Under the pieces are notes generated by a model. The model was not told the origin of the DNA. It saw only the letters and a program-made list of their open reading frames with translations, and did not search any database. From Marsupella aquatica (Eukaryota; Plantae; Marchantiophyta): a DNA stretch of 64,000 nucleotides. The position numbers and the translations under genes were made by a program. This document shows, in pieces, positions 16,200-64,000 of this stretch (the stretch's first letter is position 1; each line of letters begins with the position of its first letter). Where the stretch lies: the NCBI GenBank assembly GCA_973895155.1, contig OZ316894.1:14808599-14872598 (forward strand), in the 5' to 3' direction.

Positions 16200-19100
16200 A
16201 ATCGATTGCACATGGTGGTAATAGTAACAATGTGGCTGGACAGGGTTTGTTGGGAGATGCGCGAAACAAATGCCAGCAAATGATTTCATCTACTGAGAAT
16301 GAAGCGAGTAGAATTCGTGCGGAGGCTTCCCAAGAGGCTGCCGACATCATAGTGAATGCAAGTACACAAGCTACTAGCATCCTACAGTCTACACAATTAT
16401 AATGTGACAAATTGACACAAAGAAGACAAACTCTCTGCAATCGCATAGGCGTCAAGAAGCACGTCTTCGGTCCTTACATGGGCAACTTCTCGGTGAGAGC
16501 ATGCATGGCCAAACTTCAGAGCTGCAGCGGGAGAGTTCAGCTTCGAGGCAAGCAAACTATCAATCCTCTGCTTCAACAGAATTTAGAGCACAAGATGCTC
16601 AAAGGAAGCGAGCAGCATACTGGAAGAAAAAGGGTAATACACGCACAAAGGCTTGGCAATGTGGGTCTGCTGGTGATTTAGAAGACGAATTGAATTCCAA
16701 TAGGAGAACACGAAGTGTTCAGTCTCAGGTGTCTGTGGCGGTGACATCCATCCTGAGTAGATTGGACAAATTTAATTTGTCTGCAAGGAAGCTATTTTTC
16801 ACTAAGTTTATGCTCCATCCTTCCTTGAAGAAGTACCTCCCTGCAGTTTTTGGGACTCGTCGGAGAGATGTAGCGATACTTGCTGCAGTTGCTGACCTAA
16901 AGAATTGCTTGCAAAAAGTGAAGACTGCAAAGCGGAAAGACCATCTAGTTGCAAAGCAGATCTTGACAGTTGCATTGGCAGGCCAGGCCACAGTAGTGAA
17001 TAGGTATCAGACTTCAGTGGCTGGGGCTTTGGGTATCAAACGACAAATCATATATAAAGCTTCAAGAAGGAGGAAGTCCATAGATTCCGATTGTTTGATA
17101 AGGTTTCCAATGGGGGAAAGGAAAGTGAGAAGCGACAAAATTTCAGCTGAAGTCCGAAGAATTGTGGAAAAGTTTTGGGAATCAAATACTCGAATCTCTC
17201 CTTGCGCCAAGGACAAGGCTAGACTAAGATTGAGTATAAATGTGTACGAGGAGCATGGGGTGCATTGGCTGGAGGATACCCAGGTTAGATTTTGTTAATT
17301 TGTCATTATCAATGACATTCAAATAGGGTTTACAATAGGGTACAGGAGCTTTCATGTTCATCAGTAAGCAATTTGAACTCTACTGCATCTTTGTTAACAA
17401 TGATTGAATATGTTTTGAAGCAAGGCTTGCATCTTTTTCAGGTGGAGTTTTTTCTAAAATTCCAGGAGTTTTGCAGCAGAGACGAGAATGGAGTTAATAT
17501 AGGCTTCAGGTCTTTTCAGTATATGAAGCCTTACTACGTTCGTCCTATGAAAGACAGAAATGTTTGTTGCTGTAAGCAACATGTTGAAATGGACCTCTTG
17601 AAGGAGGCAATCAACAAATTCAGGAAGCATGAACACAGTAAGCATTGCTCTTGTGATTGCCCCATTTGCACATCAGTTGATGCTCCTTTGCAGAGTTGTG
17701 TAGCTTCTAGAACAACAATAACATCTGTAAGGGGCTGGATAGATGGAGCTCTTTGTCCAAGAGCTGAGGGGAAGCAGTGGCATGGAAAGAAATGTATCAT
17801 GGGTTCCTGTAAGAATTGTGGTGTCAACAAGTTGGATTGGTGTACATCTAAGTTAGATCCAGTTGACAAGCAATTTATTGAGTGGGAGACATTTCAGTAT
17901 TTGGAGTTAGATGAGAAAGCCCAGCAAAAGAGAGAGAAGAAAAAAGGAACAGACGAGAGTGCTACAAAAAAGTCAAAACGGTTGAGAATGGTGTTTAAGA
18001 GAACTTCAATGGGTGAATTCAAGAGTCAGGTTTTGAATACAATGAAGACATTCATTGTGCATAATTTCAGAGCACGTTGGCAGTCAGAACAATTCAAACT
18101 TTGTTTGAAAACTTTCCCTAGAGGAACTATAGTGTCATCTATTGATTTCTCTGAAAATTACACGTTCAAAATCCAAAATGAGATACAGAGTCAACACTGG
18201 GATAATAGACAGGTCACTTTGTTGATTCATGTCACTTATAGGCATAGAGAAGATTGTGTGGAATCTCTGGAGGCTGCTGTTGGAAGTACGGTTCAGATGG
18301 CATTGGATGAGGAGGGTGGTCGAGACATTATTGCAGATTATCATTTTTATATCAGTGATGACAATTGTCACGACACTCTCTTCGTCCAACATTGCATGGA
18401 TGCTCATAACCAGTGGATGAGGGAGGAAGGAATTCAGTTTGAGCAACATTGGGTCTGGTCAGATGGGGCTGCTTCACAGTTCAAGGCTTGCAGACCTTTT
18501 TATTATGTATCCAGATACTACAAAAGATTTGGTGCACGAATGAAGTGGTATTTCCATGCTTCAGGGCACGGAAAAGGTGTCGCTGTAAGTTGCAATATTA
18601 CTTTACATGTACATCCGCTCATTCCAGATTGTGTTTTAAGCTGAAGTTCCCTATAGTAAATTTGTTGTTCTATATTCATTCATCATCCAAGTTTCATTTC
18701 CTGAGATGAGTACTATGGTGTGTGCTTTTAGGATGCCCTTGGAGGCCACATAAAGCAAGGGATTGAGAGAGAACAGCTGAAGGGAATCCATGGACATCGA
18801 TTGGAGAATGCCCATGATGTGGTTTTGTTCTGCAAGGACAAATTTGCTATGGGCCAAGAAAAGGAGTATGGAGACGTCCAACTTGTTCGACGCCTGTTTT
18901 GGGAGATTCCAATGGGAGCTGTCAATCGCAAGAAGAAATGGGACTGTGATCCTATCCTAGGTTCCCGATCCTTACACTGCTTTGATGGATTTAGTAACCG
19001 CCTATCAGCTCTCCTTCAAGTCAGAGAACTTTGTTGTTTTTGTCCTCATTGCTTAGATGATGAACCTTTGCAATGTGAGAATATAAGTTGGGCTGGACAG

Positions 19101-19576
19101 TTTAAGCTCGTCATGGTGAAAGGAGTCCTGCCAAGTCACGTGAGAACTGATGTGGAAGAAATGGGAGTGGGGGAAGGACTGTACCAATGGGAGGATGGGC
19201 TGCTGGCCGAATTGGTTCAACAAGGTGACTTCTTTGCAGTGAAGGCTGAGATAGGTAACAAGTGGAATGTGGACTTCTACATTCTTCAATGTGAGCAGAC
19301 TTTGCACACCGTGAAGAAGAGTTTCAAGGACTCTCATGGAGAGGAATTTAACGAGGGTGATTTAGCTTTGAGGGCAGTGTGGTCTCAACATGTCCCAGGG
19401 CGAGATAACAAATTTGTGGTGAACGATCTAGCTGGCGTGTGAGCTACGCCCATGCTGAGACAGTAGTTCACCTTAGATTTGGTCTCACTCCATGTGAGGC
19501 AGGAAAGGGACGATATAGAATGTACACCCTTGAGCCTGAGACTCTGGCAGCAATATATGCATCCTTGGGTTCCTAG
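16200..19576 (+). pseudogene. Sola2-type DDD transposase gene with two GT-AG introns (17284-17441, 18585-18731); frameshifts near both ends
   Basis: CCCKQH motif, IDFSENY, QSQHW, SDD..HD, WSDGAASQFK and the spliced junction HGKGVA|DALGGHIK; an apparent 2-bp insertion near 19438 shifts the C-terminus, which would end at TAG 19574-19576. Confidence 0.75.
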
Positions 19577-20274: not shown

Positions 20275-23200
20275 TGTTGTGGGAGAAATGAGACAAAGAG
20301 TTGGTACCATCTTTACTCTTGGTAGAATATGTACATGTGGCTACGGCCTAAGTAGTTAGGGTAGTTACATAGGTAGTTATCCCAAAGGTAGACTTAACTC
20401 AAGTATGAGTTACAACACTCCCCCTTTGTAACATTGGGGTTGAAATGTTACAATCAAGAGTCTACTTTGGGTATATTCAGTGGTATACAATAGGTTTTGT
20501 TTATGTCTAGCCTATTTTATAAATGGTGTAGCCATCTCAAGTCTACTATAAATGAAAAGCTTCTCCTAATAGATGTCTTATAATTCATGTTGCATGGTAA
20601 AGTGTAAGTGGGGGATGTAATCTCATTAAAACCTCCCCTACTTTCTTTGTGGGAGGAAAGAGTATTACCATCCCCATGGGTGTAACATAATTGGGTTTAA
20701 GCATATAGTGTATGTGTAATTTCTAGAAAGTCTCTTAAGGTGCTTGTCAGCACTATAGGCTTGTTGAAGATCTTCCTTGGTTGATTGTTTCTCGTGTCTC
20801 CTTCCAATCGGGAAATGGAGACTCCTTGATGGTCACCGATTATATGCCATGACAAAGCAAAGTATTAGTACAAAATGAAGATGATATGGTGTAATCCATG
20901 GCCTTGGAATTGGATTGGGTGTCCAACCCTAGATTTGGTGTGGGCATAACCTATTTGCACCACATCACGTACCATATCCACAACATAGGGTTATCATATT
21001 GGGGTATGGCGCACCATCTCTTATGGTGCCTTACCATGCCATGTCTCACCTTATGGTACCTTATGACCTGGTACTGTACCTCATATTATCATATGGTACT
21101 TTAATATCCAGTATACCTCATCAAGTATTGGTAAGTGATTGTGTTAACACCATGTTCAATCATTTATAAAAATTCCTTAGATTTCATGATTTGCTATATG
21201 CATGGAATAGAGTTCCATTTTTAGGTATTCATTGGTGCGAAAGGCACTTGTGCAATAGGCACATCCCATGGGTTACATTGCTTGATGTCAAGTCTTACTT
21301 GAGGTCTCCCCCTCAATTTGTCAAATATATGTCCTTTTTGCCTGGGTGTACAGTAGGCACCCATTTGTTTCCATGTGCAGTAGGCACGGAGCTGTTATGT
21401 GCAGTAGGCACCCCTGGGAAAAATATCTCCCCCTGAATTTATGAAATTAATTGGTGGAAATAACCATCATTAACATTTTCAATAAGTGTTTTCGTAGGTG
21501 CCTTAAATCGTTTTGGCATGGCATGAAGTGTTCTTGTGAATGTTAATACAAATCAACCTTGTTGCAGTTGGCTTTAATAACTCTGAAATGTTTTTTTTTT
21601 GTTTTCAGTCATCATTTGTCTCCGTGTAGATTCTGTACCTTAGCTTCTTTCTTTATGTCCTTACTTCATGTCTTGTTGTTTGGTTTTTCTTTCCTTTTGA
21701 AGAGAAAGTCTCTTTGTTCTTTAGTTCTCCATTCCTTAGTGTAAAATGGTCTTCTTAGAAGAAAAAGGTGGTGGACTGTCCTTTGGTTTGATGGCTTCTC
21801 TTTGTTTGCCTCCTTTGCCCGGCGTCTCGTCTTTAGCTTGTACCACGATCTCCGTCTGCACTGGACATCCTTCTCTCTCCTGGCGTTCCTCACGTTCTCT
21901 CTTTGGTTTTTCGGGTTTGTGCTTCCTTCAATGTTCTTGGATTTATCCTCCTTGCCTTCGGTGCTTATTGTTTCTCCTCTGTCTCGCATTCTTTCCTTCG
22001 AAGTTTTCAGTTTCTCCCTTCGCGTTCGATCATGGACTGTCTTTATATGTTCGCAATGCTGCCTGCCTTGCTCACGATCTGCGTTCGATTTCTGTAGCGT
22101 CTTCTCTCTTCCTATCTTTTCAATTGGGAATTAGGCGTATGGGTGTTCCTTATGAATCAATCTTCTGTATGAGGTCGCCTTCACGGACTGGAAATAGGAG
22201 GTCTGATGACTCATTCCAAAACGCAGATCTCCATGAACGCAGATCTCGTTCGGGTCCTTCAGGTAATCGGCCTCATCGCTATTTCCGAGCTCCAAACGAT
22301 GCTCATTGGTGATAGGAGACGAAAATCGAGGGCATAAAGATCAAATGTGCGGATGGTGACCTCCACCAGCAGAAAACTTCAAGCAATCAGTCGTCGAGGT
22401 CGTCGACTTGCAGGGAGCCATTTGGCCAAGACTGATGGATGTATTCAGATCTTCGAATACATCCATGTCAAAGATTAGATAATTCAATCTAGTAAAGTGG
22501 CCATGTTCTTCTGCTTCAAAGGGAGTTGATAGTCTGGATTCGACCAAAACGATATGGAGTTCCATCTGCATCTCAACTGTCTGAGCTTCTCAGATTCGCA
22601 AGATACGGGCGTGGAACGTGCTCGAAAGCTTGTTAGCTACCCTGGGGTTAGGGAAGGCGTAAGGGAATAATTCTCAAGTGACGTGAGATTGGGATGATGC
22701 TCTGTACGGTACTATCGTGAAGGATTATCGGACAGGGCAGTTTTTGCAGTAGAAACTTTGGTACGTTGACGGCATGATTGAATCCGAAAGCTCATAGACC
22801 GTGCGCGTGAATGTAGAAGGGAGCATAGTTCTGCAAGGAATAGTGGAGTAGCATGCGTCTGTTGCTTCTGCTGGGCCCATGCCTACTTCAAGAAAATAGA
22901 ATCGCGTTCCTCGATGGTTCCAATCACAGGCTCGAAGTCCAGGGAGCCTTTCTTTATCTCCTGCTATCCTTACGAGTTCCTTATGGAATTGAGGCTGTGA
23001 TCTGCGCCTTGGATCGGTTCTCTTATGTGATGATATTGATTTGCATTTTTGTTCTTGCTGTCCTTATCAATTCCTCTCGAATGTTTGATGAATGTCTATG
23101 TCCAATTTTCTTAAGAGTGCTCTCTCGTTCGATCTCTCTTCTTCTTCTCTTCCCGAGCGTTTTCAGTTTCTTCCCTTATCGCCTCGATCTTTCACTTGCA

Positions 23201-23834
23201 GTGTCCTTACGCAATGCATCCTATGTTGCTTTCGTTCATTGCGAATGCCTCCAGCGGTAGACCCTTATCAATCAGAGGTGTAGTTGGTGTGAGAGGCTTG
23301 CTCGCCAGTAAATGAGAAAATGCCTTGGCCACCAACTTCCGACTCCTCGAATGGCTGGAGTTCCAATCACTGACTCGTTTCCAGATTCGTGCTCGCGTCA
23401 ACAACACTGGCTTTGACTGACTGTTGCTATTGCCTTACTGCTGTACCGACTTGAAAAGCGTGCACCGAATAAGATGGCGCCTTGATATTCAATTCACCAT
23501 AGCCGGGATCAATTCTTCCTTGGCCTTGCTCCCAAAGAAAAATTGCTCATGCAGCGCTTCAAGCAGCTCTCGCAAAAAAAAACTTTGGCCCATTCAAATC
23601 ACGTCTTCAGGGCTCTCCCTCCTTTCTTTCTCTTAGATTGAATCGGTCATGGCCTAAAAATTCAGCCAGTCTTAGGCTCGTGCTGATAACGTGTTGTGGG
23701 AGAAATGAGACAAAGAGTTGGTACCATCTTTACTCTTGGTAGAATATGTACATGTGGCTACGGCCTAAGTAGTTAGGGTAGTTACATAGGTAGTTATCCC
23801 AAAGGTAGACTTAACTCAAGTATGAGTTACAACA
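20275..23834 (-). mobile_element. Non-autonomous Copia-like (Bianca-type PBS) LTR element, 3.56 kb
   Basis: Identical 143-bp TG...CA LTRs (20275-20417, 23692-23834), 5-bp TSD TCTTA, PPT AGGGGGAG next to the left LTR, PBS CGTTATCAGCACGAG next to the right LTR; no intact gag or pol. Confidence 0.92.
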
Positions 23835-23984: not shown

Positions 23985-24084
23985 ACTAACTGAGGACTAT
24001 CCACTGATATGATTGTATACTAACTGAGGACTATCCACTGAAGGTTAAACCATATCAGTGGATAGTCCTCAGTTAGTATACAAT
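23985..24084. repeat. Direct plus inverted duplication with a perfect 30-bp hairpin
   Basis: attgtatactaactgaggactatccactga (24012-24041) is the exact reverse complement of 24055-24084; a partial third copy lies at 23985-24011. Confidence 0.9.
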
Positions 24085-25286
24085 AAAGGCTAAGCAGGCA
24101 TTGGATATCACTAGTGAAGGGTAGCATTGAATATTACTTAGTAACTTAGGTCTCTTGTTAGTAATCGCTATATATGTGCAGTAAGATGCACCTGTTTTGT
24201 AATAAATCCCTTGTGCACAATAAAGTTCATTTTAATTGGCCCATCTCTTGTCAAGCTTAGTTTTCAACTGAGAAGTCTCAAGTGGCGTGTCTATTTGGCT
24301 ATATCACTTGAATGTATTAATTTCAATCATCTGGACTTCATGTTTGAGTTTGTGTATTTACTGTCTAGAACATAGCTACAGTCCTTCCCATTCAAGACTC
24401 CCAATTTCCCAAAACATTTTTGGATCAACTATCCCTGACTAGTTCATAAGGACTAAGGAAGAGTTTGATGCGCTTCCAAATGGGACCACTTCCCAGCTCT
24501 AAGAATGGTTAGTATTCTCATTGTCTACCTGTTCCAGATCCAGAAAGAGCAGGACAATGTACAGTAGAGATTTCATATTGGAAAAGTCCAACCTAAGAGA
24601 ACTCAAAACCTACAACCCTGAGAAAGGAGGCTGGAGTTGTCATCCATTATATGTGCCCTGCGGGGATGGGATGGAGTTGAATATTTACTTACCACTGCAA
24701 GAGTAAAAATGCAACCTATGTCCCATAGTATACTAGAAGGTGGAGGTTTTGAAGTCAAGCGCATCCCAAGGTGGAGTTAAACTGTCTAACTTACTTCAAT
24801 AGCCGCTACTAAAAGGTAGTACTTATGTCCCAAAAGGTAGTACTTATGTCCCACAGGAAAGTCATTTGAGTGGGGAAAAATATACGCGCTTCAAAATATA
24901 TTCATGATTGCTCTTGAGTCTTAGTTTACAAAGATTGGAGTAAACATCCAAGTGTAATTGGTTCCAACTTTGTCTAACTACTTCACTATACTACTCGTAG
25001 GTGATCTTCATAGATTTCAGGGACTCAAATAGCTCCCCTCCAAAATTCACACAGGCATCCTTAAGTCTACTGAGCGGCCCCAAGTGGGCTTTCACCGGAG
25101 TAGTGTCACTACGGCTGAGCGAGTTCAAAAACTTAGGATTGTTGTCTTCCTTTGGTATGATCACATGTACACTACTATGTGGCTCAGGGAGGCTAGGTCC
25201 TACTTTAGGCTCACATTTAATAACACTAGTTGACTGTAAAGACCTAGCCACAGCAAGTGCTCGACAGGCATCTTTGTCTTTCTTTG

Positions 25287-25405
25287 TGATGCGGTCATAC
25301 CAGGGCTACTACACCAGATCCCATCAGAACTCTGCAGTTAAGCGCCTTTGGGCCGGAATAGTACTGGGATGGGTGACCTCCCGGGAAGTCCTGGTGCCGC
25401 ATCCA
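25287..25405 (+). rRNA. Full-length 5S rRNA copy (probable retrocopy) followed by an ATCTTTT trailer
   Basis: GATGCGGTCATACCAGGGCTACTACACCAGATCCCATCAGAACTCTGCAGTTAAGCG...AGTACTGGGATGGGTGACCTCCCGGGAAGTCC...GCATCCA, 119 nt. Confidence 0.95.
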
Positions 25406-26449
25406 ATCTTTTATCTTCAATGAGAAGAAGACCACACGGGGAAGAGGGTTTGGAGGCATTGCTGTCTACACCAAGAATCAACTTCAACACATCACCTCTA
25501 TTGAACATGAAGATCCCAACAAGCAGTTCATGGTGGTGAGACTTCATACCAGAGGTACTCCATCATTTCTGATTGTCACCTACTTTGCTCCCCTTAATAT
25601 GAATGTCCTTTTCATGCCTTGCGCTCATCTTCAGCTAAAGGGTGGTATGCAGATGTGTGCAGGTGGGCCCATGCTTGGGATTTTCCTGAACATGAATGGC
25701 CAACACACCCAACCAAGCTAAGAGCAAAACTTGAGCAAAAGGCTTTGCACAAACTTTGGCATGAACCTAGCCCACGGCAGCAATACTACATGAGAGATGT
25801 GAACCCCATGAAGAAATATCGAGAACAAGAATACTTATCTAGCACTATCTCAGTACAACTTAGACAACTTATTGCTCAGTATAGACTAAGCTCACACCAC
25901 CTGAGCAATCTCTTTTGGTTGCTCTTTTCTTTGATTGCATTGTACTTTACTTTTTGTGGCAGCTCCTTTGACTTTCATGGTCCCGGAGCTTATAATACAT
26001 TACCATTACCATTACCATTACCTTGAAGTAGAACAAGGGAGATGGAAGGATATTGACAGGAAAAAGAGGGTTTGTCAACTATGTGATAGCTCTAGTATAG
26101 AGAATGAATATCATGTATTCATTGCTTGCAAGTTTTATGAGGGGGTTAGGATGGCATCTCAAATCTTGGTGAAAGATTTGTATGCATTGTTTGGTCTGCC
26201 CCCTCAGCAACTTGGAAGATATATCTTTGCGGTGGATAGGGAAAGGAGAATAGGTTTGGAAAATCTTTCAGGGCTCTCTAGGTCCATAGGGCTCTCTAGG
26301 TCCATAGTTTCTTTGAGGACATAGTTGTCCTCTTCTGAGCAATCTCTTTTGGTTGCTCTTTTCTTTGATTGCATTGTACTTTACTTTTTGTGGCAGCTCC
26401 TTTGACTTTCATGGTCCCGGAGCTTATAATACATTACCATTACCATTAC

Positions 26450-27535
26450 CATAGTGAATGCCAAAAGTCTCTTTTCCCCTGAATGTGATCTTGCTTGCAT
26501 CCTTGCTCTAGCACAATCCTCGTCAAACCAAGCCTTCATGTTTTGCTTTCTAGGGGGTTTGGTGGAGAAAGTAGAGGCTGCTGCTTGTGCTATGACTTCT
26601 GAGAGCTCAATCTGATCATCCAGGGTATGGAGAAGATGTTCAAAGTTGGCTTTGAAGATGACTTCTCTATCAGGGTCTACAAACAGAGGTTTGGGTACTG
26701 GCTTTCTATGCACTTTGTTTGGGATTGTGGTCAGGTCAAGATGGAACAACAAAGGCAAGTGTGAAGACTCTGGTTGTTGATCAAGTATTTGAAAGTCAAC
26801 CACTCTAGTGGCAGAGGTAGGTGAGGCAAGAAGGTAATCAATGGTACTACATCCTTGTTTAGATCTAAAAGTGTAACCAGATGATTGGGGAAATCTCTCA
26901 AGCCCATTCAATATTCTTAGATTACAAGAAGCTCCCAAATGCAAAAAGTGACGTGTCATGTCATTTGTTCTGGTGTCAAGAGCCTCTCTCACCCAAGGTA
27001 TCTCTTCACTACATGATGACCAAGGTAAAGTTCCTAAGTCCTCACTTTCAGTAAATTGTTCATTATCTACCCTGGCATTAAAGTCCCCCACTATCCATGT
27101 CTCCCCTAGTGGTGATATATCATGAATGACTTGGATTAACCTATGAAATGGATAATGTGCATCAGCAATTCCCATTTTATAGACATTCATATTAAGGGGA
27201 GCAAAGTAGGTGACAATCAGAAATGATGGAGTACCTCTGGTATGAAGTCTCACCACCATGAACTGCTTGCTGGGATCTTCATGTTCAATAGAGGTGATGT
27301 GTTGAAGTTGATTCTTGGTGTAGACAGCAATGCCTCCAAACCCTCTTCCCCGTGTGGTCTTCTTCTCATTGAAGATGGATTGTATGCAAGTAAAGCCTTT
27401 AATGCTAGGTAGAGCATTTCCCTCATATTCCCAAGTCTCCGTGAAAAGCAAGATGTCAAAATTCTCAAACAAAGGTTCCCCTCCAATTGCTGTTTCTATG
27501 GAAAGTCCTGAAACATTCCATGCCATGATTCTCAA
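26450..27535 (-). pseudogene. LINE ORF2 AP endonuclease domain, truncated
   Basis: WNVSGL, LFTETW, GGIAVY, IVGDFNA, TIDY, SSHLP motifs. Confidence 0.9.
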
Positions 27536-27547
27536 GGTCCCAATCCA

Positions 27548-28318
27548 TCATTTAGAAACAACTCTCTTCTTATTGGTAACAACAGCTTGTCCATTGCGCA
27601 AGTAGGCTACCAATCCTTGGTCTTTGGCTACCCTCACCTTCTCAAGCTCAATTTTCCTTGCTTGGACTTGTGTGGGAGTCAGATCATCATCCAACCAAAT
27701 CCTTAGCCCTTTAAGCATGCTCCTGTTAGCCATCACTCTAGCTTTCTCGGATTCAGCTGCAAACTTCACCAAGATTGGACGTGGAAGGTCCCCCTTCTTT
27801 TGCCCAATCCTATATGCTTGCAAAATGATAGGGTCATGCACTTTCATCTGAGATTGGAAGAATGAAATTGCTACCTTCTTGGTGTCTTCCTTCTCCTCCT
27901 CAACAAGGCCTGATATTTTGCAGTTGCTGACTCTTGCATGCTAGTTCTTGTGTTCTTCCTCTAGTGCTCTCCTCTCCTCCTCCTTGGCTTGGACAAATTC
28001 CATATGTGATTGTTTTGCAGCCTGTGCAAAGGTTTTGAGCTTCTCCTCAATCTCCCCTACAGCCTCATGTATCACTGATTTCTGTGGGCACATACTCTTC
28101 TCCATGTCTCCAAAACACGATGCAAGCAATGAGAGTTGCTTACCATTCTCCTGAGTTTGAGATCGAAGATCACTAATCAACCTCTTTTGCTTGACATTCT
28201 CATTCTTTAGCTCCATCACCTCCTTGCTGAGCGTGGTAATCTCAATTGCGGAGTTTTCAGCCACAACTAAGATTTTCTCAAGCAAAGCCTTGAGATGGGC
28301 AATCTCCTCCGTTGCCAT
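27548..28318 (-). pseudogene. LINE ORF1 (coiled coil plus L1/Tnp22-like RRM-CTD), with one CAG>TAG stop at 27941-27943
   Basis: YRIG, PRPILVKF, IWLDDDLT motifs; this codon is CAG in copy 2. Confidence 0.85.
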
Positions 28319-29169
28319 CACAAAGCTGAAACTGTTGTTAGAATGTACTCTTAGACGACAAATAGAAATTGGGAGCAGTAGAGGATGTCAGTTGCAGCTC
28401 TACCTTTGCCAGTGATACACTCTCACTGTTTGCAACACTCTGGCAAAGTCTGAGCTCAAACCGCAGCCGATTGCCCTTCCAACTCGAAGTGAAATTTCGC
28501 CCCAAGCTCAGAATCCCGAAACTGGACACGTAGCAGATCGTGCATGCTAAAGTGCATACCAAACGATGTCGGTTGCAGCTCTAACTTTGCCAGTGATACA
28601 TTCTCGCTGTTTCCAATGCTCTGGCAAAGTGTGAGCTTAAATCGTAGCCAATTTCCCTTCCAACTCGAAGTGAAATTTCGCCCCAAGCTCAGAATTGCGA
28701 AATTGGAGACGTAACAGATCGTGCATGCTAAAGTGCATATCAAACGATGTCGGTTGCAGCTCTAACTTTGCCAGTGATACATTCTTGCTGTTTCCAATGC
28801 TCTGGAAAAATCTGAGCTCAAACCGCAGCCGATTGCCTTTCCAACTCGAAGTGCCTGAAGAGCTCAGGTTGGCTGTTTCTAAATTGTACCAAGAAGTGCG
28901 CATCAAACTTTCAAAGGAAACCTCTGAAGAAATCTGGAGCACTCTTGGGGTGATCCAAGGTTGTCCTCTCTCAAGTGAAATTTCACCCCGAGCTCAGAAT
29001 CGCGAAACTAGAGACGTAGCAGATCGCGCATGCTAAAGTGCATACCAAACGATGTCGGTTGCAGCTCTAACTTTGCCAGTATGCTATCATGGAAGTACTG
29101 AATGGCACATTCACAGTTCACTCCTTAAGGACACAATCAAGATCCAGATACTACAAAGCACATACTCTA

Positions 29170-29830
29170 CTTGACCCAGGACTTGACCAAGGAAAGGACT
29201 TGTTTGCAGAAGGGAGAAATTACTTGAATCACACCCACTCCTCAAAAAGGAGAATCACTCCTTCTCTAAGGACATGCACTCCCTGTTCGACTCCTTTTTC
29301 GAAGACGTCTACTACTTTAAGAAGGACATGCACTCCTTTCCAAAGGACAAACACTCCTAAATGAACAGTCCTTTGGAAAGGAGTAACACTCCTTTTACAA
29401 GGACCGAAAGTCCTTTCAAAAGGACTATTGCTCCTTTGTCAAGGACCAACTGTCCTTTCAAAGGACTAGTGCTCCTTTGTCAAGGACCATCAGTCCTTTA
29501 AAAAGGACATGCACTCCTTAACAAAGGAGTGACACTCCTTGACCAAGGACATGCACTTGCTTCAGAAGGACCTGAACTCCTTGGAAAAGGAGTCAGACTC
29601 CTTTCACAATGGACATGGACTCCTTGAAAATTGACACCCACTCCTTCACGAAGGCCACCCAGTCCTTAACAAAGAAGAACAACTAAGAGGTAAAAAAATG
29701 GTTGACAAGGGCTCACAGTCCTTGACAGAGCAGATTTCAGAACTCGTTTAATTGACACAAGTCATGAACTAAGTGTAAAAGGACTGTACAAGACTCGCTC
29801 CTGTGTACACTCCTTTCAAAAAGGACCAGA
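29170..29830. repeat. Degenerate AAGGA(C/G)/(C/G)TCCTT repeat field, likely a DNA-transposon subterminal region
   Basis: Alternating aaggac/aaggag and actcctt/gtcctt motifs with about 20-bp spacing. Confidence 0.75.
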
Positions 29831-34628: not shown

Positions 34629-36558
34629 CTAGCAATTAAAGTGCAGATCAGTGTGGATACCTTTCCTTCGATTGAGACCATAGTTCACCAACTGTCGCCT
34701 CTGGGCCAATCGCCTACAGTTCTTCCCATATAGGTCCTCCACTTCCATGGCCATTGGGTGATGCTCCAGGGCTATATGAGTGCCCTCTTTGTAGCCTTGC
34801 TCATCATCTAAACCCCAGGTTTGTAACCAGTCATTACTGAAAATTGCCCCGCATGCCTTGCATTGTGGGCCGCTCGTACATGAATGAATATAAGTAAACA
34901 AACATGCAGGATGATATGTGTGCCCACATGATGCTGGGATCCAATTGTAGCAATGGTATCCATTGCAACAAATTGGACAACTTGATACAGATACTCTGCT
35001 AAAACTTGTTTCAGTGGACGTAAGGGTATAACGTGGCATCACTGCAGGACATGGGTTGCATAAAATGTCTGCCACAATCGCAAGCTCTACTTCCTAATGC
35101 TTCAAATTAGATTCAATCTTTCGGCGTTCTGCTGTTAACTTGTTAGATAAGTCAAACATCCGGGACATCATTTTAGGCACACTCTCGTCATACTCTTGTT
35201 TTCTCTGTAATCTTTCCTTCACACTATGCAAATCCCGTCGGGTGGCTTCCAACAGGCTAGAAAGCTGGATGACTGTACTCTCGTGAGTTCTTAGCGTTGT
35301 CCCCATCAAGGCCAACAAGTCGTTGTTAACCTGCAATATCAACATTTGAAACAATCACATGTCTTGCCACAAGGTCCATCGCCTAAAGCCCACATTGAAG
35401 TCCACAACCGCAAACAAACGGGTCCTGAACAGAGAAAGGACATGATCCTAGCAAGATGAAGGAGGAAATCTCAAAGTACCTCTTCAATCGCCTCTCCTTC
35501 ACCCTGCTTGTTGGATTCCAACTCAATGTCGGTCGTTAGTTCTTCCACTACAATTTCTTCTGCATCAATTTCATTGGAGATTTTATCTTCTTGAAGTCGT
35601 AGGTTCTCAATCTCTTGCTGTAATGAGCTCTCCACATCATCACGTCCCGACTGAATTACCTTCAGTTTGTCCATGGTAGAATGGACCTTGTCGAACCTCT
35701 TGTTCACAGACACGAGCTGACCCCTCATTTTAGATATCTCGACTTCTATGGCAGATACCAGAACGTTCTTCACTTTCAAGGGAATCTGTCTCTTCTCGGA
35801 TGGACGAACACATAGAATAGGTGTGGGAGGAGGTACTGTCCTAACCTTAGTCAAGCTGCAACTGCCAAGCTCCTTGGGCACGACACTTTTAGGGCTCTCA
35901 AAAAGTGCTAACTGTCCGTCACAGACGACGGGTTTAGTCTCTGACGAAGACTTTGGAGCTGAATACAGTTGAGGCTTTCTAACACAAGGAGGGCCATCAG
36001 GCCTACCTTTCCCATCTCGTGACCACTGAGTTACCTGACCCTTCAGTTTTGTCGATGCATAAGCTGCCCAGTTTACCTTTCTATGAAGCACCCGCTCGGC
36101 ATAGGCACCTTTGACAAACGTATGAGATAGAATTCCATTAACAGGCTTCTCATACCCGTCCACCACTTGAGACAGTGCTAAAATCTCATCAAGAGGAATA
36201 CCCGTGCAAGTACTTAGCTTATAGCCATTCCATTACCATTACCATTACCATTCCTTGTTACCTCACCAAAGCATGCACTCAACTGTTCCTCGGTGAGATC
36301 TAAAATCTTGTGCGGAGTTTCACCCTCATTGGGGAGACCAAAGTTTGTAGCAAACCAGGCTGCATCCTTGTAGAACTCGGTCGGAGACCAAGTTACATCA
36401 AAGCTCTGGCCTTTCACTTTCTTAGCTGCTCTTGGCAGTTGAGCTTTGGTGTTTTCCTTCGTGATGCCTGTCTCAGCTTTTGCCAGGACATTGGATACTC
36501 GCTGTATCGACTTGACATCCACCCCTCCATCAACTGTCAATGGAGAAGTGGTATCCAT
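34629..36558 (-). pseudogene. TE-associated gene: FGLP..G/VNWA domain, coiled coil and RING-H2 finger; probably continues at 30111-30590 beyond the solo LTR
   Basis: CPIC...CGHTYHPAC...CKAC RING-H2 pattern; GT-AG intron at about 35331-35479; frameshift near 36200; in-frame TAG at 35094. Confidence 0.65.
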
Positions 36559-45752: not shown

Positions 45753-46350
45753 ACCTGAATAATGTACATGCATAGTGCACCTGATGTGGATACCTTGGAG
45801 ATTGCAGACATTCCAATTTTGAGAAGAAGGACCTCTGTAGGAGAGGATGCTTAGGCAACAAGTACCCTAAGTTCATTACTTGTTCCTGGGTACATGCCTT
45901 CAAAAACTCCCCTTAAGCCTTCTAGGAACTTTTTTAACTCTGCAATCATTTTGATCACGACTTACATGACACTGCTTAAATTAAATCAGGACTTCTCATT
46001 ATGAGCATATAAGTTACAAGGCTATTTAATTTGCGAGAATTCCCTTAAAGTGTACCAACATTTTGTATTCTCATTGAATGTCTGCCCATTTACAACATCT
46101 GTATGTGGCATCACAAAACAATTGCACTTGTCACCTTCAATATTGTGAAGGCACATATTCAAACTATGAGGTGCATGCTTGCAGGTGTCTAGTACGTTTG
46201 TCCCAATATTTCTCCCGTTTGGAATCGGAGCAGAGACTCACCAGACGATTGGACTGGACCAAGTTATAAACGCAGCATTTTAAGGGCCCTCCGATTATCA
46301 GGTGAACGCATTATCTTCCGGTCTACAGTGATTAGGTGGCCCGTGTGTAC

Positions 46351-47202
46351 ATGGCCTCTAGGAAACGTACAAAGGTTGACCACCCACCTCTGTTGGCTGG
46401 AATCAAAGCCATTTTGATTCCTGGCCACTATGGGTTCACCCAAGTGAGTTGGCCAATCGTACAAAAACGATTCTCAGAGTTCCATGGGACTGAAGTCAAG
46501 GACATCACTCCACAAACTACACATGTTGTTGCGGGGACATGGCTGGATGTGATGAACAAGTGGTCATGGTCCTTCATTGATTCTGCCATTACCAACCAAG
46601 GTCTAAAAGTAGTTGAAGTCTCTTGGCTGACCGATTCTGTTAAACATAGGTGTGTACAGAGTACTGAGCAATATGAGTTGTGGGAGAGTGTCAAGGAGGC
46701 CACTGCAGAGGCTTTGGCTGAAAAGGAAGCCTATGAAGCAGCGGAAGAGAAACCCAACTTTGCTTCTGTCCAATATGGACCTGTTGTCAACATAGGACAC
46801 CATCCTATGCGTGCAGATGCTATATTGAATGAGCATGGCAAGGAGAGAAATACCATTATGAAGGGGTTCAGTGTGGTATTTGCAGAAGAAGGAATTGGGG
46901 AGACTAAGTGCAGACTGTACAAGTCTATAGTTGTTGAGCTAGGTGGAACAGTGGAGGAGAGTCTAATAGAAACCTCCACTCATGTTGTAGGTCTGTCATA
47001 CATGAAAATATGCAGAAAATTCTTTAAGACAATAGTGTGTGATTTTGTCATGAACAACAATCTTTGGGTGCTTTCCCCTGATTGGCTTCTGGAATTAGCA
47101 GCTAGAGGGAAGCGACAGAATGCTTGGGACTTTGATATTTTTGAGGCCTGGCCCTCCAAGATTCAGCGGAGATGTATGCTTAGCAAAGGTGGGAGAGAGT
47201 GA
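46351..47202 (+). CDS. Tandem BRCT-domain protein, 283 aa
   Basis: Two BRCT repeats: G.EV...TTHVV...VVEVSWLTDS and LGGTV...STHVV...VLSPDWLLE; intact ORF. Confidence 0.8.
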   Translation: MASRKRTKVDHPPLLAGIKAILIPGHYGFTQVSWPIVQKRFSEFHGTEVKDITPQTTHVVAGTWLDVMNKWSWSFIDSAITNQGLKVVEVSWLTDSVKHRCVQSTEQYELWESVKEATAEALAEKEAYEAAEEKPNFASVQYGPVVNIGHHPMRADAILNEHGKERNTIMKGFSVVFAEEGIGETKCRLYKSIVVELGGTVEESLIETSTHVVGLSYMKICRKFFKTIVCDFVMNNNLWVLSPDWLLELAARGKRQNAWDFDIFEAWPSKIQRRCMLSKGGRE

Positions 47203-49301: not shown

Positions 49302-50332
49302 CCCACAAGAAGAAAACCTATGTTTTACTACTACAGGCCTTGCAACTACTTTGCCTAAACAACTCATACGTGGTGCCAACCACTGTTTTTTTAATGGGTT
49401 GTAATAATCTGCATTTTGTGACTCTAATTAGAACTATGTTACCTTAATCACTAATTACAACTCTTTTTTTTGCCACTAAAACTTAGATCACTTTAATTAG
49501 AGTTGTATATTATACAATTTTCAAATCACTACAATCCACCGTCCATTACACCGTCAATGTTTACAACTCTATTTTTAACTAAGATTTTACTACTGGCCAA
49601 AAGCACTACAAATACAAGTACCACCAATATTTGAATGGTAAAGGTGTTTTTTCAATCAACTCCCAATCAAGTGAATCTTTTCCAAGTGATCTTAATTACT
49701 TGAAATAATGTCATTTGTGAGCACACCTTTTGTTACTATAAATATCACCAATAGTGGAGTCATAAATGAATTTTGGCAAAATCACTTAAAATATTTTAGT
49801 GACAAGGAAATTCTTACAAACAACATAAGATTGAGTGAATTAATTGTCAATGTACAAAATCTCTTTAAGTAAAGTCATTATTATCACAAATTTTCTGACT
49901 AGAAATGCCACTAATATTAGAGTCCAATAAATATTATTTGATGCAACTACAAACCAAGTGCCACATCCTCTTTTGGTCCAAAATCACTCTAAAGAATGTT
50001 ATTCTCTTCGCACATTTTAGTGACTCCAAATGCCACTAAGAGTAGAGTGTCAATGGAGGGCCTTGCAAATGACTTGAAATGAAGTAGATCATTTTTCATT
50101 CTCAGAAATCACTATGAATAATGTCATTCTTTAAATATATTTTGCAACTACAAATGCCATCAACATTAGAGTGTCAGAACAGTTTTGACAAATGACTGAA
50201 AATTGAAAGGATTATTTTGTGATGTCCAAATCTCTCCCAATGATGTCATTAGCAACACACATTTTCAGCCACGATATGCATGCCACCAAAATTACAGCGA
50301 TAAATAAATTCTTTTTTACAAATTGTACCAAA

Positions 50333-58571: not shown

Positions 58572-59141
58572 TTCACCTGGTCCATTTTGGTTCAAATACA
58601 TCATTACTATTGTAGACATCGATACAGTTAGTTAATCAATGGAACAATGATGTTTTGTCATAATCACACATTTTGTGAACTGTGTGAATGGTTAGCACAA
58701 GCATGGAGACAGTGCTCCCGGTTTAATTGACTAAGGCTTCCTAAAACATCTAAAGTACTCAAACTTTATTTATTTGACATCTAAAGGACATTGTTTGATA
58801 TGCACTTTAGCATGCACGATCTGTTACGTCTCCAGTTCCGCAATTCTGAGCTTGGGGCGAAATTTCACTTCGAGTTGGAAGGGAAATTGGCTGCGGTTTA
58901 AGCTCAGACTTTGCCAGAGCATTGGAAACAGCGAGAATGTATCACTGGCAAAGTTAGAGCTGCAATCGACATCGTTTGGTATGCACTTTAGCATGCACGA
59001 TCTGCTACGTGTCCAGTTTTGGGATTCTGAGCTTGGGGCGAAATTTCACTTCGAGTTGGAAGGGCAATCGGCTGCGGTTTGAGCTCAGATTTTGGCAGAG
59101 TGTTGCAAACAGCGAGAGTGTATCACTGGCAAAGCTTTGTG

Positions 59142-59912
59142 ATGGCAACGGAGGAGATTGCCCATCTCAAGGCTTTGCTTGAGAAAATCTTAGTTGTGGC
59201 TGAAAACTCCGCAATTGAGATTACCACACTCAGCAAGGAGGTGACGGAGCTAAAGAATGAGAATGTCAAGCAAAAGAGGTTGATTAGTGATCTTCGATCT
59301 CAAACTCAGGAGAATGGTAAGCAACTCTCATTGCTTGCATCGTGTTTTGGAGACATGGAGAAGAGTATGTGCCCAGAGAAATCAGTGATACATGAGACTG
59401 TAGGGGAGATTGAGGAGAAGCTCAAAACCTTTGCATAGGCTGCAAAACAATCACATATGGAATTTGTCCAAGCCAAGGAGGAGGAGAGGAGAGCACTAGA
59501 GGAAGAACACAAGAACCAGCATGCAAGAGTCAGCAACTGCAAAATATCAGGCCTTGTTGAGGAGGAGAAGGAAGACACCAAGAAGGTAGCAATTTCATTC
59601 TTCCAATCTCAGATGAAAGTGCATGACCCTATCATTTTGCAAGCATATAGGATTGGGCAAAAGAAGGGGGACCTTCCACGTCCAATCTTGGTGAAGTTTG
59701 CAGCTGAATCCGAGAAAGCTAGAGTGATGGCTAACAGGAGCATGCTTAAAGGGCTAAGGATTTGGTTGGATGATGATCTGACTCCCACACAAGTCCAAGC
59801 AAGGAAAATTGAGCTTGAGAAGGTGAGGGTAGCCAAAGACCAAGGATTGGTAGCCTACTTGCGCAATGGACAAGCTGTTGTTACCAATAAGAAGAGAGTT
59901 GTTTCTAAATGA
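59142..59912 (+). pseudogene. LINE ORF1 with one CAG>TAG stop at 59436
   Basis: Same protein as 27548-28318 with the stop at a different codon. Confidence 0.85.
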
Positions 59913-59924
59913 TGGATTGGGACC

Positions 59925-62900
59925 TTGAGAGTCATGGCATGGAATGTTTCAGGACTTTCCATAGAAACAGCAATTGGAGGGGAACCTTTGTTTGAGAATT
60001 TTGACATCTTGCTTTTCACGGAGACTTGGGAATATGAGGGAAATGCTCTACCTAGCATTAAAGGCTTTACTTGCATACAATCCATCTTCAATGAGAAGAA
60101 GACCACACGGGGAAGAGGGTTTGGAGGCATTGCTGTCTACACCAAGAATCAACTTCAACACATCACCTCTATTGAACATGAAGATCCCAGCAAGCAGTTC
60201 ATGGTGGTGAGACTTCATACCAAAGGTACTCCATCATTTCTGATTGTCACCTACTTTGCTCCCCTTAATATGAATGTCTATAAGATGGGAATTGCTGATG
60301 CACATTATCCATTTCATAGGTTAATCCAAGTCATTCATGATATATCACCACTAGGGGAGACATGGATAGTGGGGGACTTTAATGCCAGGGTATCTAATGA
60401 ACAATTTACTGAAAGTGAGGACTTAGGAACTTTACCTTGGTCATCATGTAGTGAAGAGATACCTTGGGTGAGAGAGGCTCTTGACACCAGAACAAATGAC
60501 ATGACACGTCACTTTTTGCATTTGGGAGCTTCTTGTAATCTAAGAATATTGAATGGGCTTGAGAGATTTCCCCAATCATCTGGTTACACTTTTAGATCTA
60601 AACAAGGATGTAGTACCATTGATTACCTTCTTGCCTCACCTACCTCTGCCACTAGAGTGGTTGACTTTCAAATACTTGATCAACAACCAGAGTCTTCACA
60701 CTTGCCTTTGTTGTTCCATCTTGACCTGACCACAATCCCAAACAAAGTGCATAGAAAGCCAGTACCCAAACCTCTGTTTGTAGACCCTGATAGAGAAGTC
60801 ATCTTCAAAGCCAACTTTGAACATCTTCTCCATACCCTGGATGATCAGATTGAGCTCTCAGAAGTCATAGCACAAGCAGCAGCCTCTACTTTCTCCACCA
60901 AACCCCCTAGAAAGCAAAACATGAAGGCTTGGTTTGACGAGGATTGTGCTAGAGCAAGGATGCAAGCAAGATCACATTCAGGGGAAAAGAGACTTTTGGC
61001 ATTCACTATGTACAAGAACTTCATCAAACACAAGAAGAGGTGCTTCTTGAAAAGTCATCAACAATCACTATGTGAGGAGTTCATCAAACATCCAAAACGT
61101 TTTTGGGAGAGAATGCAATCAGGCAAGACTACTCCCCCCTTGGATCAAATCAATATTGAATGGGCTTGAGAGATTTCCCCAATCATCTGGTTACACTTTT
61201 AGATCTAAACAAGGATGTAGTACCATTGATTACCTTCTTGCCTCACCTACCTCTGCCACTAGAGTGGTTGATTTTCAAATACTTGATCAACAACCAGAGT
61301 CTTCACACTTGCCTTTGTTGTTCCATCTTGACCTGACCACAATCCCAAACAAAGTGCATAGAAAGCCAGTACCCAAACCTCTGTTTGTAGACCCTGATAG
61401 AGAAGTCATCTTCAAAGCCAACTTTGAACATCTTCTCCATACCCTGGATGATCAGATTGAGCTCTCAGAAGTCATAGTACAAGCAGCAGCCTCTACTTTC
61501 TCCACCAAACCCCCTAGAAAGCAAAACATGAAGGCTTGGTTTGACGAGGATTGTGCTAGAGCAAGGATGCAAGCAAGATCACATTCAGGGGAAAAGAGAC
61601 TTTTGGCATTCACTATGTACAAGAACTTCATCAAACACAAGAAGAGGTGCTTCTTGAAGAGTCATCAACAATCACTATGTGAGGAGTTCATCAAACATCC
61701 AAAACGTTTTTGGGAGAGAATGCAATCAGGCAAGACTACTCCCCCCTTGGATCACCAGGACCTGGTAACCTATGTCACATCCTTGTATTTCTTTCCAGAT
61801 GCTAGTGGCATGCCTTTGCCCCTTGGGGACACCATTCAGTTTACAGAGAGGGAGGTGAAGGTGCATCTTTCCCACATGCAACATGGGAAAGCTAAAGATC
61901 TGTTGGGCCTGAACTTGGAGCTTCTTTTGTGGGGAGGACCCTCTTTATTAACAAACTTGGTGCATGAGCTGAATCAAGCAATGGCTTTAGGTTTACCTAA
62001 AGCTTGGATGACCAGAAGAGTGGTGCCTATCTTCAAGGCAGGCAACAAGGACGATGTGCACAACTACAGAACCATCATGGTAGGCAATACTTTTGCTAAA
62101 GTTTTGGGAGGACTACTTGAAGCCAGATTAAGCTCTTGGTTGGAGAGTGAGATGAAAAGGGCACCTTCACAAGCAGGTTTTAGGAGAGAATTCAGCACTA
62201 TGGATCACATTCTCTGCTTGAGGGTGTTGTGTGAAAAGGCCAAATCTCCACATAAACCATTATTTTGCTTGTTTGTGGACTTCTCCAAGGCCTTTGACAA
62301 AGTTTCCCGATCCAAGCTTTGGGATAGGATGGTGGAGTTGGAAGTGCCTGAAGAGCTCAGGTTGGCTGTTTCTAAATTGTACCAAGAAGTGCGCATCAAA
62401 CTTTCAAAGGAAACCTCTGAAGAAATCTGGAGCACTCTTGGGGTGATCCAAGGTTGTCCTCTCTCACCAACTCTATTTGGCATCTTCATTGATCAGCTAC
62501 ACAACATTTTGGAGGAGCATGGTGGAGTTGGCACTCAATTGGGTAGGTTTGTCCTCCAACTTCTTATATTTGCAGATGATGTGGTCCTACTTGCTCATGC
62601 TCAAGAAGCTTTGCAAAGACATCTCAATGCCTTGGAGGAGTTTTGTCAAGCAACAGGGATGGTAGTCAACCTCAAGAAGACCAAGTGTTTGGGCATTGGC
62701 ACACGACAAAATCCAGAGCTCTACTTCCAAGGGAATCTGGTGGAATTTGTGAGGACCTACAAATACCTTGGGGTGGAGTTCTCTCAAAACTTGAGTTGGG
62801 CCTCATGTGTAAAATCTAGGGCTGCCAATGGGTACAGAGCTTTTTATGCATTCATGAACAAATGCAAAAGAGCTGGTCTACACACTTGGAGGTTAAGGAA

Positions 62901-63736
62901 ACATCTCTTTGGAGCTTTGGTGAAACCAGTCATTCTTTATGGAGCACCAATTTGGGGAGCAGGTGTGTCTAAATCTGGGTGGCAACAGATTGAGGGGCTG
63001 CAAAAGCTATTTCTTGAGATGGAGCTTGGGATCAAGTCACAAACCCCATATACACTTACACTTGCAGAGGCAGGCTTGTTTCCTTTGGAGGTGGAGGCAC
63101 TCTTCCACACACTCAAATACATCATGCGTGTAAGAGAGTTGGAGGAAAACAGATTTCCTTTTCATGCCTTGCGCTCATCTTCAGCTAAAGGGTGGTATGC
63201 AGATGTGTGCAGGTGGGCCCATGCTTGGGGATTTTCCTGAACATGAATGGCCAACACACCCAACCAAGCTAAGAGCAAAACTTGAGCAAAAGGCTTTGCA
63301 CAAACTTTGGCATGAACCTAGCCCACGGCAGCAATACTACATGAGAGATGTGAACCCCATGAAGAAATATCGAGAACAAGAATACTTATCTAGCACTATC
63401 TCAGTACAACTTAGACAACTTATTGCTCAGTATAGACTAAGCTCACACCACCTTGAAGTAGAACAAGGGAGATGGAAGGATATTGACAGGAAAAAGAGGG
63501 TTTGTCAACTATGTGATAGCTCTAGTATAGAGAATGAATATCATGTATTCATTGCTTGCAAGTTTTATGAGGGGGTTAGGATGGCATCTCAAATCTTGGT
63601 GAAAGATTTGTATGCATTGTTTGGTCTGCCCCCTCAACAACTTGGAAGATATATCTTTGCGGTGGATAGGGAAAGGAGAATAGGTTTGGAAAATCTTTCA
63701 GGGCTCTCTAGGTCCATAGTTTCTTTGAGGACATAG
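59925..63736 (+). pseudogene. LINE ORF2 (APE endonuclease, reverse transcriptase, C-terminal CCHC), disrupted by the duplication and a 1-bp G insertion near 63230
   Basis: NYRTI, QAGFR, FVDFSKAFD, GVIQGCPLSP, FADD, YKYLG; RLSSHHLEVEQGRW...CQLC...ENEYH...C typical of RTEX-like elements. Confidence 0.92.
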
Positions 63737-64000
63737 TTGTCCTCTTCTGAGCAATCTCTTTTGGTTGCTCTTTTCTTTGATTGCATTGTACTTTACTTTT
63801 TGTGGCAGCTCCTTTGACTTTCATGGTCCCGGAGCTTATAATACATTACCATTACCATTACCATTACCAGTATAGACTAAGCTCACACCACCTTGAAGTA
63901 GAACAAGGGAGATGGAAGGATATTGACAGGAAAAAGAGGGTTTGTCAACTATGTGATAGCTCTAGTATAGAGAATGAATATCATGTATTCATTGCTTGCA

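Follow-up and report, generated by a model that had tools for sequence, protein, structure and literature searches.

Complete 5S rRNA sequence is fused, in the same orientation, to LINE sequence in the stretch of Marsupella aquatica DNA analysed here (64,000 nt, referred to as the window). The question raised by this locus is whether the 5S copy was made from RNA, and if so how it came to be joined to the LINE, or whether the arrangement is better explained by a 5S gene that lies next to a LINE, by DNA repair, by a 5S-derived SINE or by faulty assembly. The chimera, which is known here from assembled sequence alone, is probably real, young, RNA-templated and single. It likely arose by a one-time accident, similar to cases known in animals and fungi, and not as part of a new repeat family.

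The only Rfam match within the 64 kb (cmscan) was to 5S rRNA (RF00001, nt 25287–25405, plus strand, 107.1 bits, E 1.5e-22). It is complete, spanning model positions 1–120 of 120; no further rRNA matches were returned by cmscan for the window, and no tRNA genes were found within it. Nucleotides 25298–25391 (94 nt, including the internal promoter region) are identical to a contig of sequencing run X3 with a depth of 3819. The gene is followed by the trailer ATCTTTT, which closes with a run of four T (25409–25412), and the assembled sequence then passes, with no overlap at the joint, into a piece of the LINE endonuclease region. A complete 5S with this trailer, fused directly and in the same sense to an endonuclease fragment, had been reported in the preliminary description; these elements and their coordinates were borne out (Table 1). 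The matching stretch of the LINE falls in an ORF with a Pfam Exo_endo_phos domain (PF03372, E 3.9e-11), and comparison of the fragment with the neighbouring inverted LINE copy shows 1 mismatch. The fusion, however, forms just the beginning of a patchwork of 3.8 kb that reaches nt 29080, with all of its pieces drawn from one LINE family.

Table 1. Features of the 5S/LINE locus and of the reference LINE copy, in window coordinates.
Feature	Position	Strand	Basis or match
Left flank, unrelated repeat without 5S spacer	24300..25282	.	covered by contigs in 4/4 runs
Filler of three T between flank and 5S	25283..25285	+	bounds from contigs (behind 25282, before 25286)
Full-length 5S rRNA copy	25286..25405	+	Rfam model from 25287; true-gene contigs align from 25286
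Genomic 5S trailer to end of first T4 run, Pol III terminator-like	25406..25412	+	7 nt
LINE endonuclease fragment	25413..25607	+	= 60084-60278, 2 mismatches in 195
LINE ORF2 C-terminal piece	25608..25902	+	= 63158-63453; 2.9-kb skip from endonuclease piece, 2-nt overlap
Short LINE 3' end with hexamer tail, inside 3' piece	25903..26022	+	= 63749-63868; overlaps 2 nt, 3 nt
LINE 3' region resumed, with 18-nt local duplication and hexamer tail	26023..26452	+	= 63453-63864
Inverted 5' half of same LINE family (ORF1 with internal stop, endonuclease)	26453..28327	-	= 61007 to 59133
78-nt GT..AG segment of LINE 5' UTR, predicted intron	28326..28403	-	missing exactly from copy at 59133
181-bp monomer array, LINE 5' end	28384..28853	-	same monomers at 58787-59134
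120-nt RT fragment, sense opposite to surrounding monomers	28854..28973	+	= 62347-62466, 0 mismatches; overlaps 6 nt, 1 nt
Last partial monomer, right end of patchwork	28974..29080	-	tiling
Reference LINE copy, near full-length but rearranged, with monomers, ORF1, endonuclease, RT and hexamer tail	58787..63868	+	ORF, Pfam, self-comparison

Contigs from 4 of 24 public sequencing runs (2 studies, two organisms) were aligned to nt 24300–25900, with rows of small share left aside. In two of the four runs, X1 and X2, contigs of true 5S genes (three in each) align from nt 25286 and carry a different sequence upstream, which ends in the same six letters in both. One X2 contig matches the trailer through nt 25412 and then continues into a different, T-rich sequence, so that the trailer comparison consists of one contig from one of the four runs. 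Contigs of the left-flank repeat have loose ends behind nt 25282 in all four runs and run thereafter into other, non-5S sequence, i.e. other copies or alleles of this repeat take a different course past that point; its continuation was not found elsewhere within the window. The 5S copy starts within 1–2 bases of the gene start, without the spacer, and ends where the first T run in the trailer of true genes ends. Both ends are transcript-shaped, and on the left lies an unrelated repeat in place of a gene flank, so an RNA template is likely; the ends would correspond to a nascent transcript made by Pol III. The earlier reading of the locus as a chimeric retrocopy is supported by the presence of a non-5S repeat on the left in all four runs, and favoured by the divergence of the true 5S contigs (X1, X2) just before nt 25286, while the shared trailer of the X2 contig lends weight to the suggestion that a Pol III precursor was the template. 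Bryophyte 5S genes are reported to be linked to 35S rDNA (PMC6739443). Insertion of a LINE beside a genomic 5S gene (rDNA targeting) was considered and rejected, as the upstream flank is not 5S spacer and there is no other rRNA match in the window.

The three T that separate flank and 5S fit non-templated addition, and probably arose in that way or by a further short template switch. A 10-mer spanning the flank/5S joint recurs at the start of LINE ORF1 (chance expectation 0.011, post hoc), a match that might reflect one more short template switch.

No contig bridging either 5S joint occurred among the 32 of 473 pieces and the 24 of 84 loose-end rows that were listed; rare variants are lost from contigs. 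Those listed at the joints at nt 25413 and 25607 follow normal LINE sequence in all four runs. The base of the window at nt 25519 is unseen in 4/4 runs, all depth there being of another base, and a 21-bp duplication at nt 24811 is absent from X1 and X3 (the two listed of four). Given these two absences, the runs probably represent other individuals or species. The insertion may therefore be private; an artefact is less likely. A 30-nt 5S pattern gave 0 matches in the metagenome scan.

The structure of the patchwork was derived by exact tiling and joint analysis against the LINE copy at nt 58787–63868, to which its pieces are 99.4–100% identical. The six LINE–LINE joints show overlaps of 2, 2, 3, 3, 6 and 1 nt (sum 17; P 8.5e-5 in 200,000 simulations), compared with 0 at the 5S joint. 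A hexamer tail (nt 26436–26452) closes the LINE 3' region, and the 3' end and the position of the tail are common to two metagenome relatives (L001 and L002). The inverted 5' half that follows has 11 mismatches in 1875 nt and overlaps the tail by 3 nt; it either belongs to the same event or was already in place when the 5S-headed piece inserted into it. Canonical twin priming was rejected as an explanation for the whole patchwork, as the tail faces the inverted half and not the flank. Comparison of the left flank with three candidate right ends gave only chance matches of 5–6 nt in place of a target-site duplication, which leaves a single integration event for the chimera unproven. The right neighbour of the 5S-headed insertion is another LINE piece, and the site may be rearranged. 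The near identity of the pieces to the LINE copy, together with the 94 nt of 5S that equal a high-depth contig, indicates a young insertion. A near-perfect inverted repeat lies to the left of the locus (nt 23985–24084), and a degenerate palindromic microrepeat to its right (nt 29236–29677).

In the reference LINE copy, ORF1 is interrupted by a stop; its C-terminal part matches no Pfam family and its N-terminal part gives weak coiled-coil matches only. The ORF after the endonuclease ORF carries a reverse transcriptase (RT) domain (PF00078, E 3.6e-31). This copy also has an internal duplication of 603 bp (nt 60545–61754, 3 mismatches), one extra base near nt 63230 that shifts the frame, and a restart at position 63428 directly after the tail (nt 63868–64000). 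Among the best 120 of 303 matches, the top named relatives of the RT belong to two liverworts, Calypogeia fissa (64% identity, 100% cover) and Riccia sorocarpa (51%), with a fern next, which points to a liverwort host. A PDB search with the RT returned R2 and L1 enzymes only, which do not place the clade. From the two ORFs, the APE endonuclease and the short-repeat tail, we take RTEX/RTE-X to be a candidate. RTE-X elements have been annotated in Marchantia (10.1101/827881). An RT scan of metagenomes gave 2 loci of 24 candidate stretches, both 3' ends only, so that they offer no 5' heads for inspection. The two metagenome relatives (62–65% identity) share the 3' end of the LINE and are likewise terminated by hexamer repeats.

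The 5' end of the LINE consists of 181-bp tandem monomers, about 90% alike, at nt 58787–59134 and 28384–29080, an arrangement that resembles the promoter arrays of rodent L1. The 78-nt GT..AG segment contains, 16 nt from its end, a motif resembling a branch site, is kept in the inverted copy and is missing exactly at nt 59133–59135; its GT donor is present only in the last of the four monomer positions checked. It looks like a spliceosomal intron in the 5' UTR, spliced in one retrocopy and retained in the other. L1 insertions from spliced RNA are known (PMC5860796). A lone hexamer tail at nt 36216–36257, where only a few bases resemble the LINE 3' end, may be a very short insertion of this family.

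The origin we favour, and judge probable, is a template jump, end to end, onto a nascent 5S transcript of Pol III in the course of a multi-jump insertion that took place once. The cDNA would have been started at the hexamer tail (nt 26452) and proceeded leftwards, with the RT switching to a second LINE 3' end and back and then skipping 2.9 kb to the endonuclease region. The joints concerned are present as overlaps of 2–3 nt; the switches would account for them. At LINE position 60084, which meets the 5S trailer with 0 overlap, the enzyme would have jumped to the U-rich 3' end of the nascent 5S transcript and carried on to the 5' end of that RNA, making 5S the last template. Three extra bases would then have been added, and the end joined to the unrelated repeat. 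Since no target-site duplication is seen, the site would have undergone loss or rearrangement. Non-LTR RTs are reported to add non-templated bases and to continue on new templates (PMC10830420), double jumps in a fungal LINE to give tripartite chimeras (PMC2104539), and chimeras with small RNA (U6) to be products of L1, L2 and RTE elements (PMC4476161). The six overlapping joints, along with the 603-bp duplication and the post-tail restart of the reference copy, suggest a LINE that is prone to such jumps. As the captured terminator would likely stop any Pol III transcript, the product is predicted to be dead, a single retrocopy. One point against the favoured origin is the 120-nt RT piece, whose opposite orientation calls for a DNA or antisense template and would fit repair synthesis too.

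Against a jump stands the 5S joint itself, which, with 0 overlap and four T, is exactly what RNA ligation yields for U6/L1 and is unlike the six overlapping joints. A 5S precursor could have been ligated to cut LINE RNA and the fused RNA then retrotransposed, as for U6/L1, whose products have four T precisely joined to L1 (PMC6789731); the sense orientation fits either route (10.1101/2025.02.02.635956). Ligation is nevertheless unlikely. In the U6/L1 work it required a 2',3'-cyclic phosphate, an end that 5S does not normally carry, and an RtcB-independent route has been proposed for 5S (PMC6789731); moreover, the adjoining joints show template switching already under way in this insertion. The parallel to U6/L1 chimeras drawn in the preliminary description is one of structure; the best-documented U6/L1 route depends on an end that is normally lacking in 5S. 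Stitching at the DNA level would join free 5S cDNA, or a separately retroposed 5S, to LINE fragments in double-strand-break repair (templated insertions of the polymerase-theta type), or would come about by successive insertions and a deletion. Short overlaps, fillers, inverted pieces and missing duplications fit end-joining repair, and all are seen here: six short-overlap joints, the left filler, the 120-nt piece in inverted orientation, flanks that do not match and the lack of a target-site duplication. Such stitching still requires RT to make the 5S cDNA, however, and there is neither a second tail nor a duplication that would mark a separate insertion of 5S; the order on one strand, 5S, truncated LINE and tail, is that of the usual chimeras (10.1101/2025.02.02.635956). 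We regard stitching as likewise unlikely. A chimeric read or misassembled repeats would agree with the lack of an independent contig across the joints among those listed, and with the base at nt 25519 and the duplication at nt 24811 going unseen in the covering runs. But nothing in a DNA-level chimera would favour breaks exactly at the first base of a 5S gene and where its terminator ends, the overlaps of 0–6 nt are far below the k-mer overlaps of assembly graphs, and the runs may be from other individuals or species, all of which makes an artefact very unlikely.

The possibility of a SINE3, also raised previously, concerns the architecture of a 5S head and a LINE tail, and this much is present. 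An amplified plant SINE3 would have a 5S promoter head, an internally deleted LINE body and a LINE tail, and would be transcribed by Pol III and mobilised by the LINE. The locus matches a proposed birth route, in which a small-RNA head is added to an internally deleted LINE by a template switch (PMC5786205), and both the internal promoter region and the LINE 3' end are intact, the former unchanged. What speaks against a working element is the number of T runs: ten of 4–5 T (8 of four, 2 of five) lie between trailer and tail, the first being the captured terminator, in keeping with the earlier caution that the T4 run may terminate Pol III. Runs of this length would stop plant Pol III, and read-through from head to tail would not be expected. 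In addition, no TATA-like motif is found in the 46 nt upstream of the 5S copy, the 64 kb contain a single 5S copy, the contigs listed at the 5S/LINE and skip joints follow normal LINE sequence in 4/4 runs, and all contig depth at nt 25519 is of the other base. The absence of a chimeric contig among those listed in the four runs argues against a high copy number, not against few copies. An amplified SINE3 is accordingly highly improbable, the lack of a target-site duplication being a further point against it. Slightly different is the idea of a plant SINE3 caught at birth, in which an intact 5S promoter and an internally deleted LINE with its 3' recognition end would form a unit that, itself or through siblings, undergoes Pol III read-through and mobilisation; this too is highly improbable, although if true it would supply the missing plant SINE3 speculated to underlie Cassandra.

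Among known systems the closest are the U6/LINE retrocopies of vertebrates (L1, L2, RTE), with a full-length Pol III RNA in sense, 5' of a truncated LINE, and the joint after a short T run. The present locus shares the features of such retrocopies: the small RNA begins at its 5' end without upstream gene flank and ends at the transcript 3' end, where it is joined directly and in sense to a 5'-truncated LINE, and the insertion is closed by the LINE 3' end and tail. It differs in having a 5S head with the genomic trailer included, a LINE part of several pieces, no target-site duplication that could be found, and a plant host. In human 5S/LINE-1 chimeras a 5S copy is likewise inserted together with LINE sequence, and 5S/L1 make up 10.5% of 253 chimera candidates; they are frequently antisense and truncated at position 46 or 90, for which twin priming was proposed, while U6 heads are full-length and sense (10.1101/2025.02.02.635956). 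The present chimera, being sense, full-length and with a trailer, is hence U6-like. The tripartite MINE chimeras of Magnaporthe also show several jumps per insertion, with copying of the last template reaching its very 5' end, but have 14-bp direct repeats that prove one event, which are lacking here, and a different head RNA (PMC2104539).

SINE3 elements and Cassandra TRIMs resemble the locus in having a 5S internal promoter ahead of mobile sequence. They differ in that the 5S chimera is present in one copy in the window, retains a terminator and has no LTRs. A Cassandra TRIM was rejected: there is one 5S match in 64 kb and its flanks are not repeated, so there are no two 5S-bearing LTRs. Multicopy 5S-derived SINEs (SINE3) are listed for reptiles, insects, fish and mammals in a 2024 review, where the plant rows examined are Cassandra LTR elements (PMC10946416), and 5S-related SINEs have been reported from a fungus (PMC5063351). 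Cassandra has been speculated to derive from SINE3 (PMC10886601). No plant 5S/LINE chimera or plant SINE3 was found by title or start of abstract in a literature search chiefly of open-access papers.

The kind of event is thus known from U6/LINE and 5S/L1 chimeras; what is unusual is a sense, full-length 5S copy in a plant. If real, it adds an early-diverging land plant to the hosts in which LINEs capture small RNA, and shows for 5S the sense, full-length, terminator-ended pattern of U6, where 5S is mostly antisense and truncated in human chimeras. It would also be a snapshot of a step proposed for the birth of SINEs (PMC5786205), and a route for 5S copies out of rDNA-linked arrays. As a single copy known from an assembly it alters little by itself. 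The LINE family is young and often rearranging, and its 5' joints genome-wide would bear on template jumping versus RNA ligation outside animals.

Several other features of the window were observed. Two identical direct repeats of 143 bp with TG..CA ends bracket 3.3 kb at nt 20275–23834, a structure resembling a short-LTR element of recent origin in minus-strand orientation. At nt 16408–19442, three long ORFs of the plus strand (296, 442 and 236 aa) are Cys/His-rich and without a Pfam match at 1e-3; by eye, they appear to form a transposase-like gene. A tandem array of units of about 700 bp, 83–91% alike, occupies nt 50331–53128, and an ORF at nt 46336–47202 carries a BRCT domain (PF00533, E 8.7e-13).
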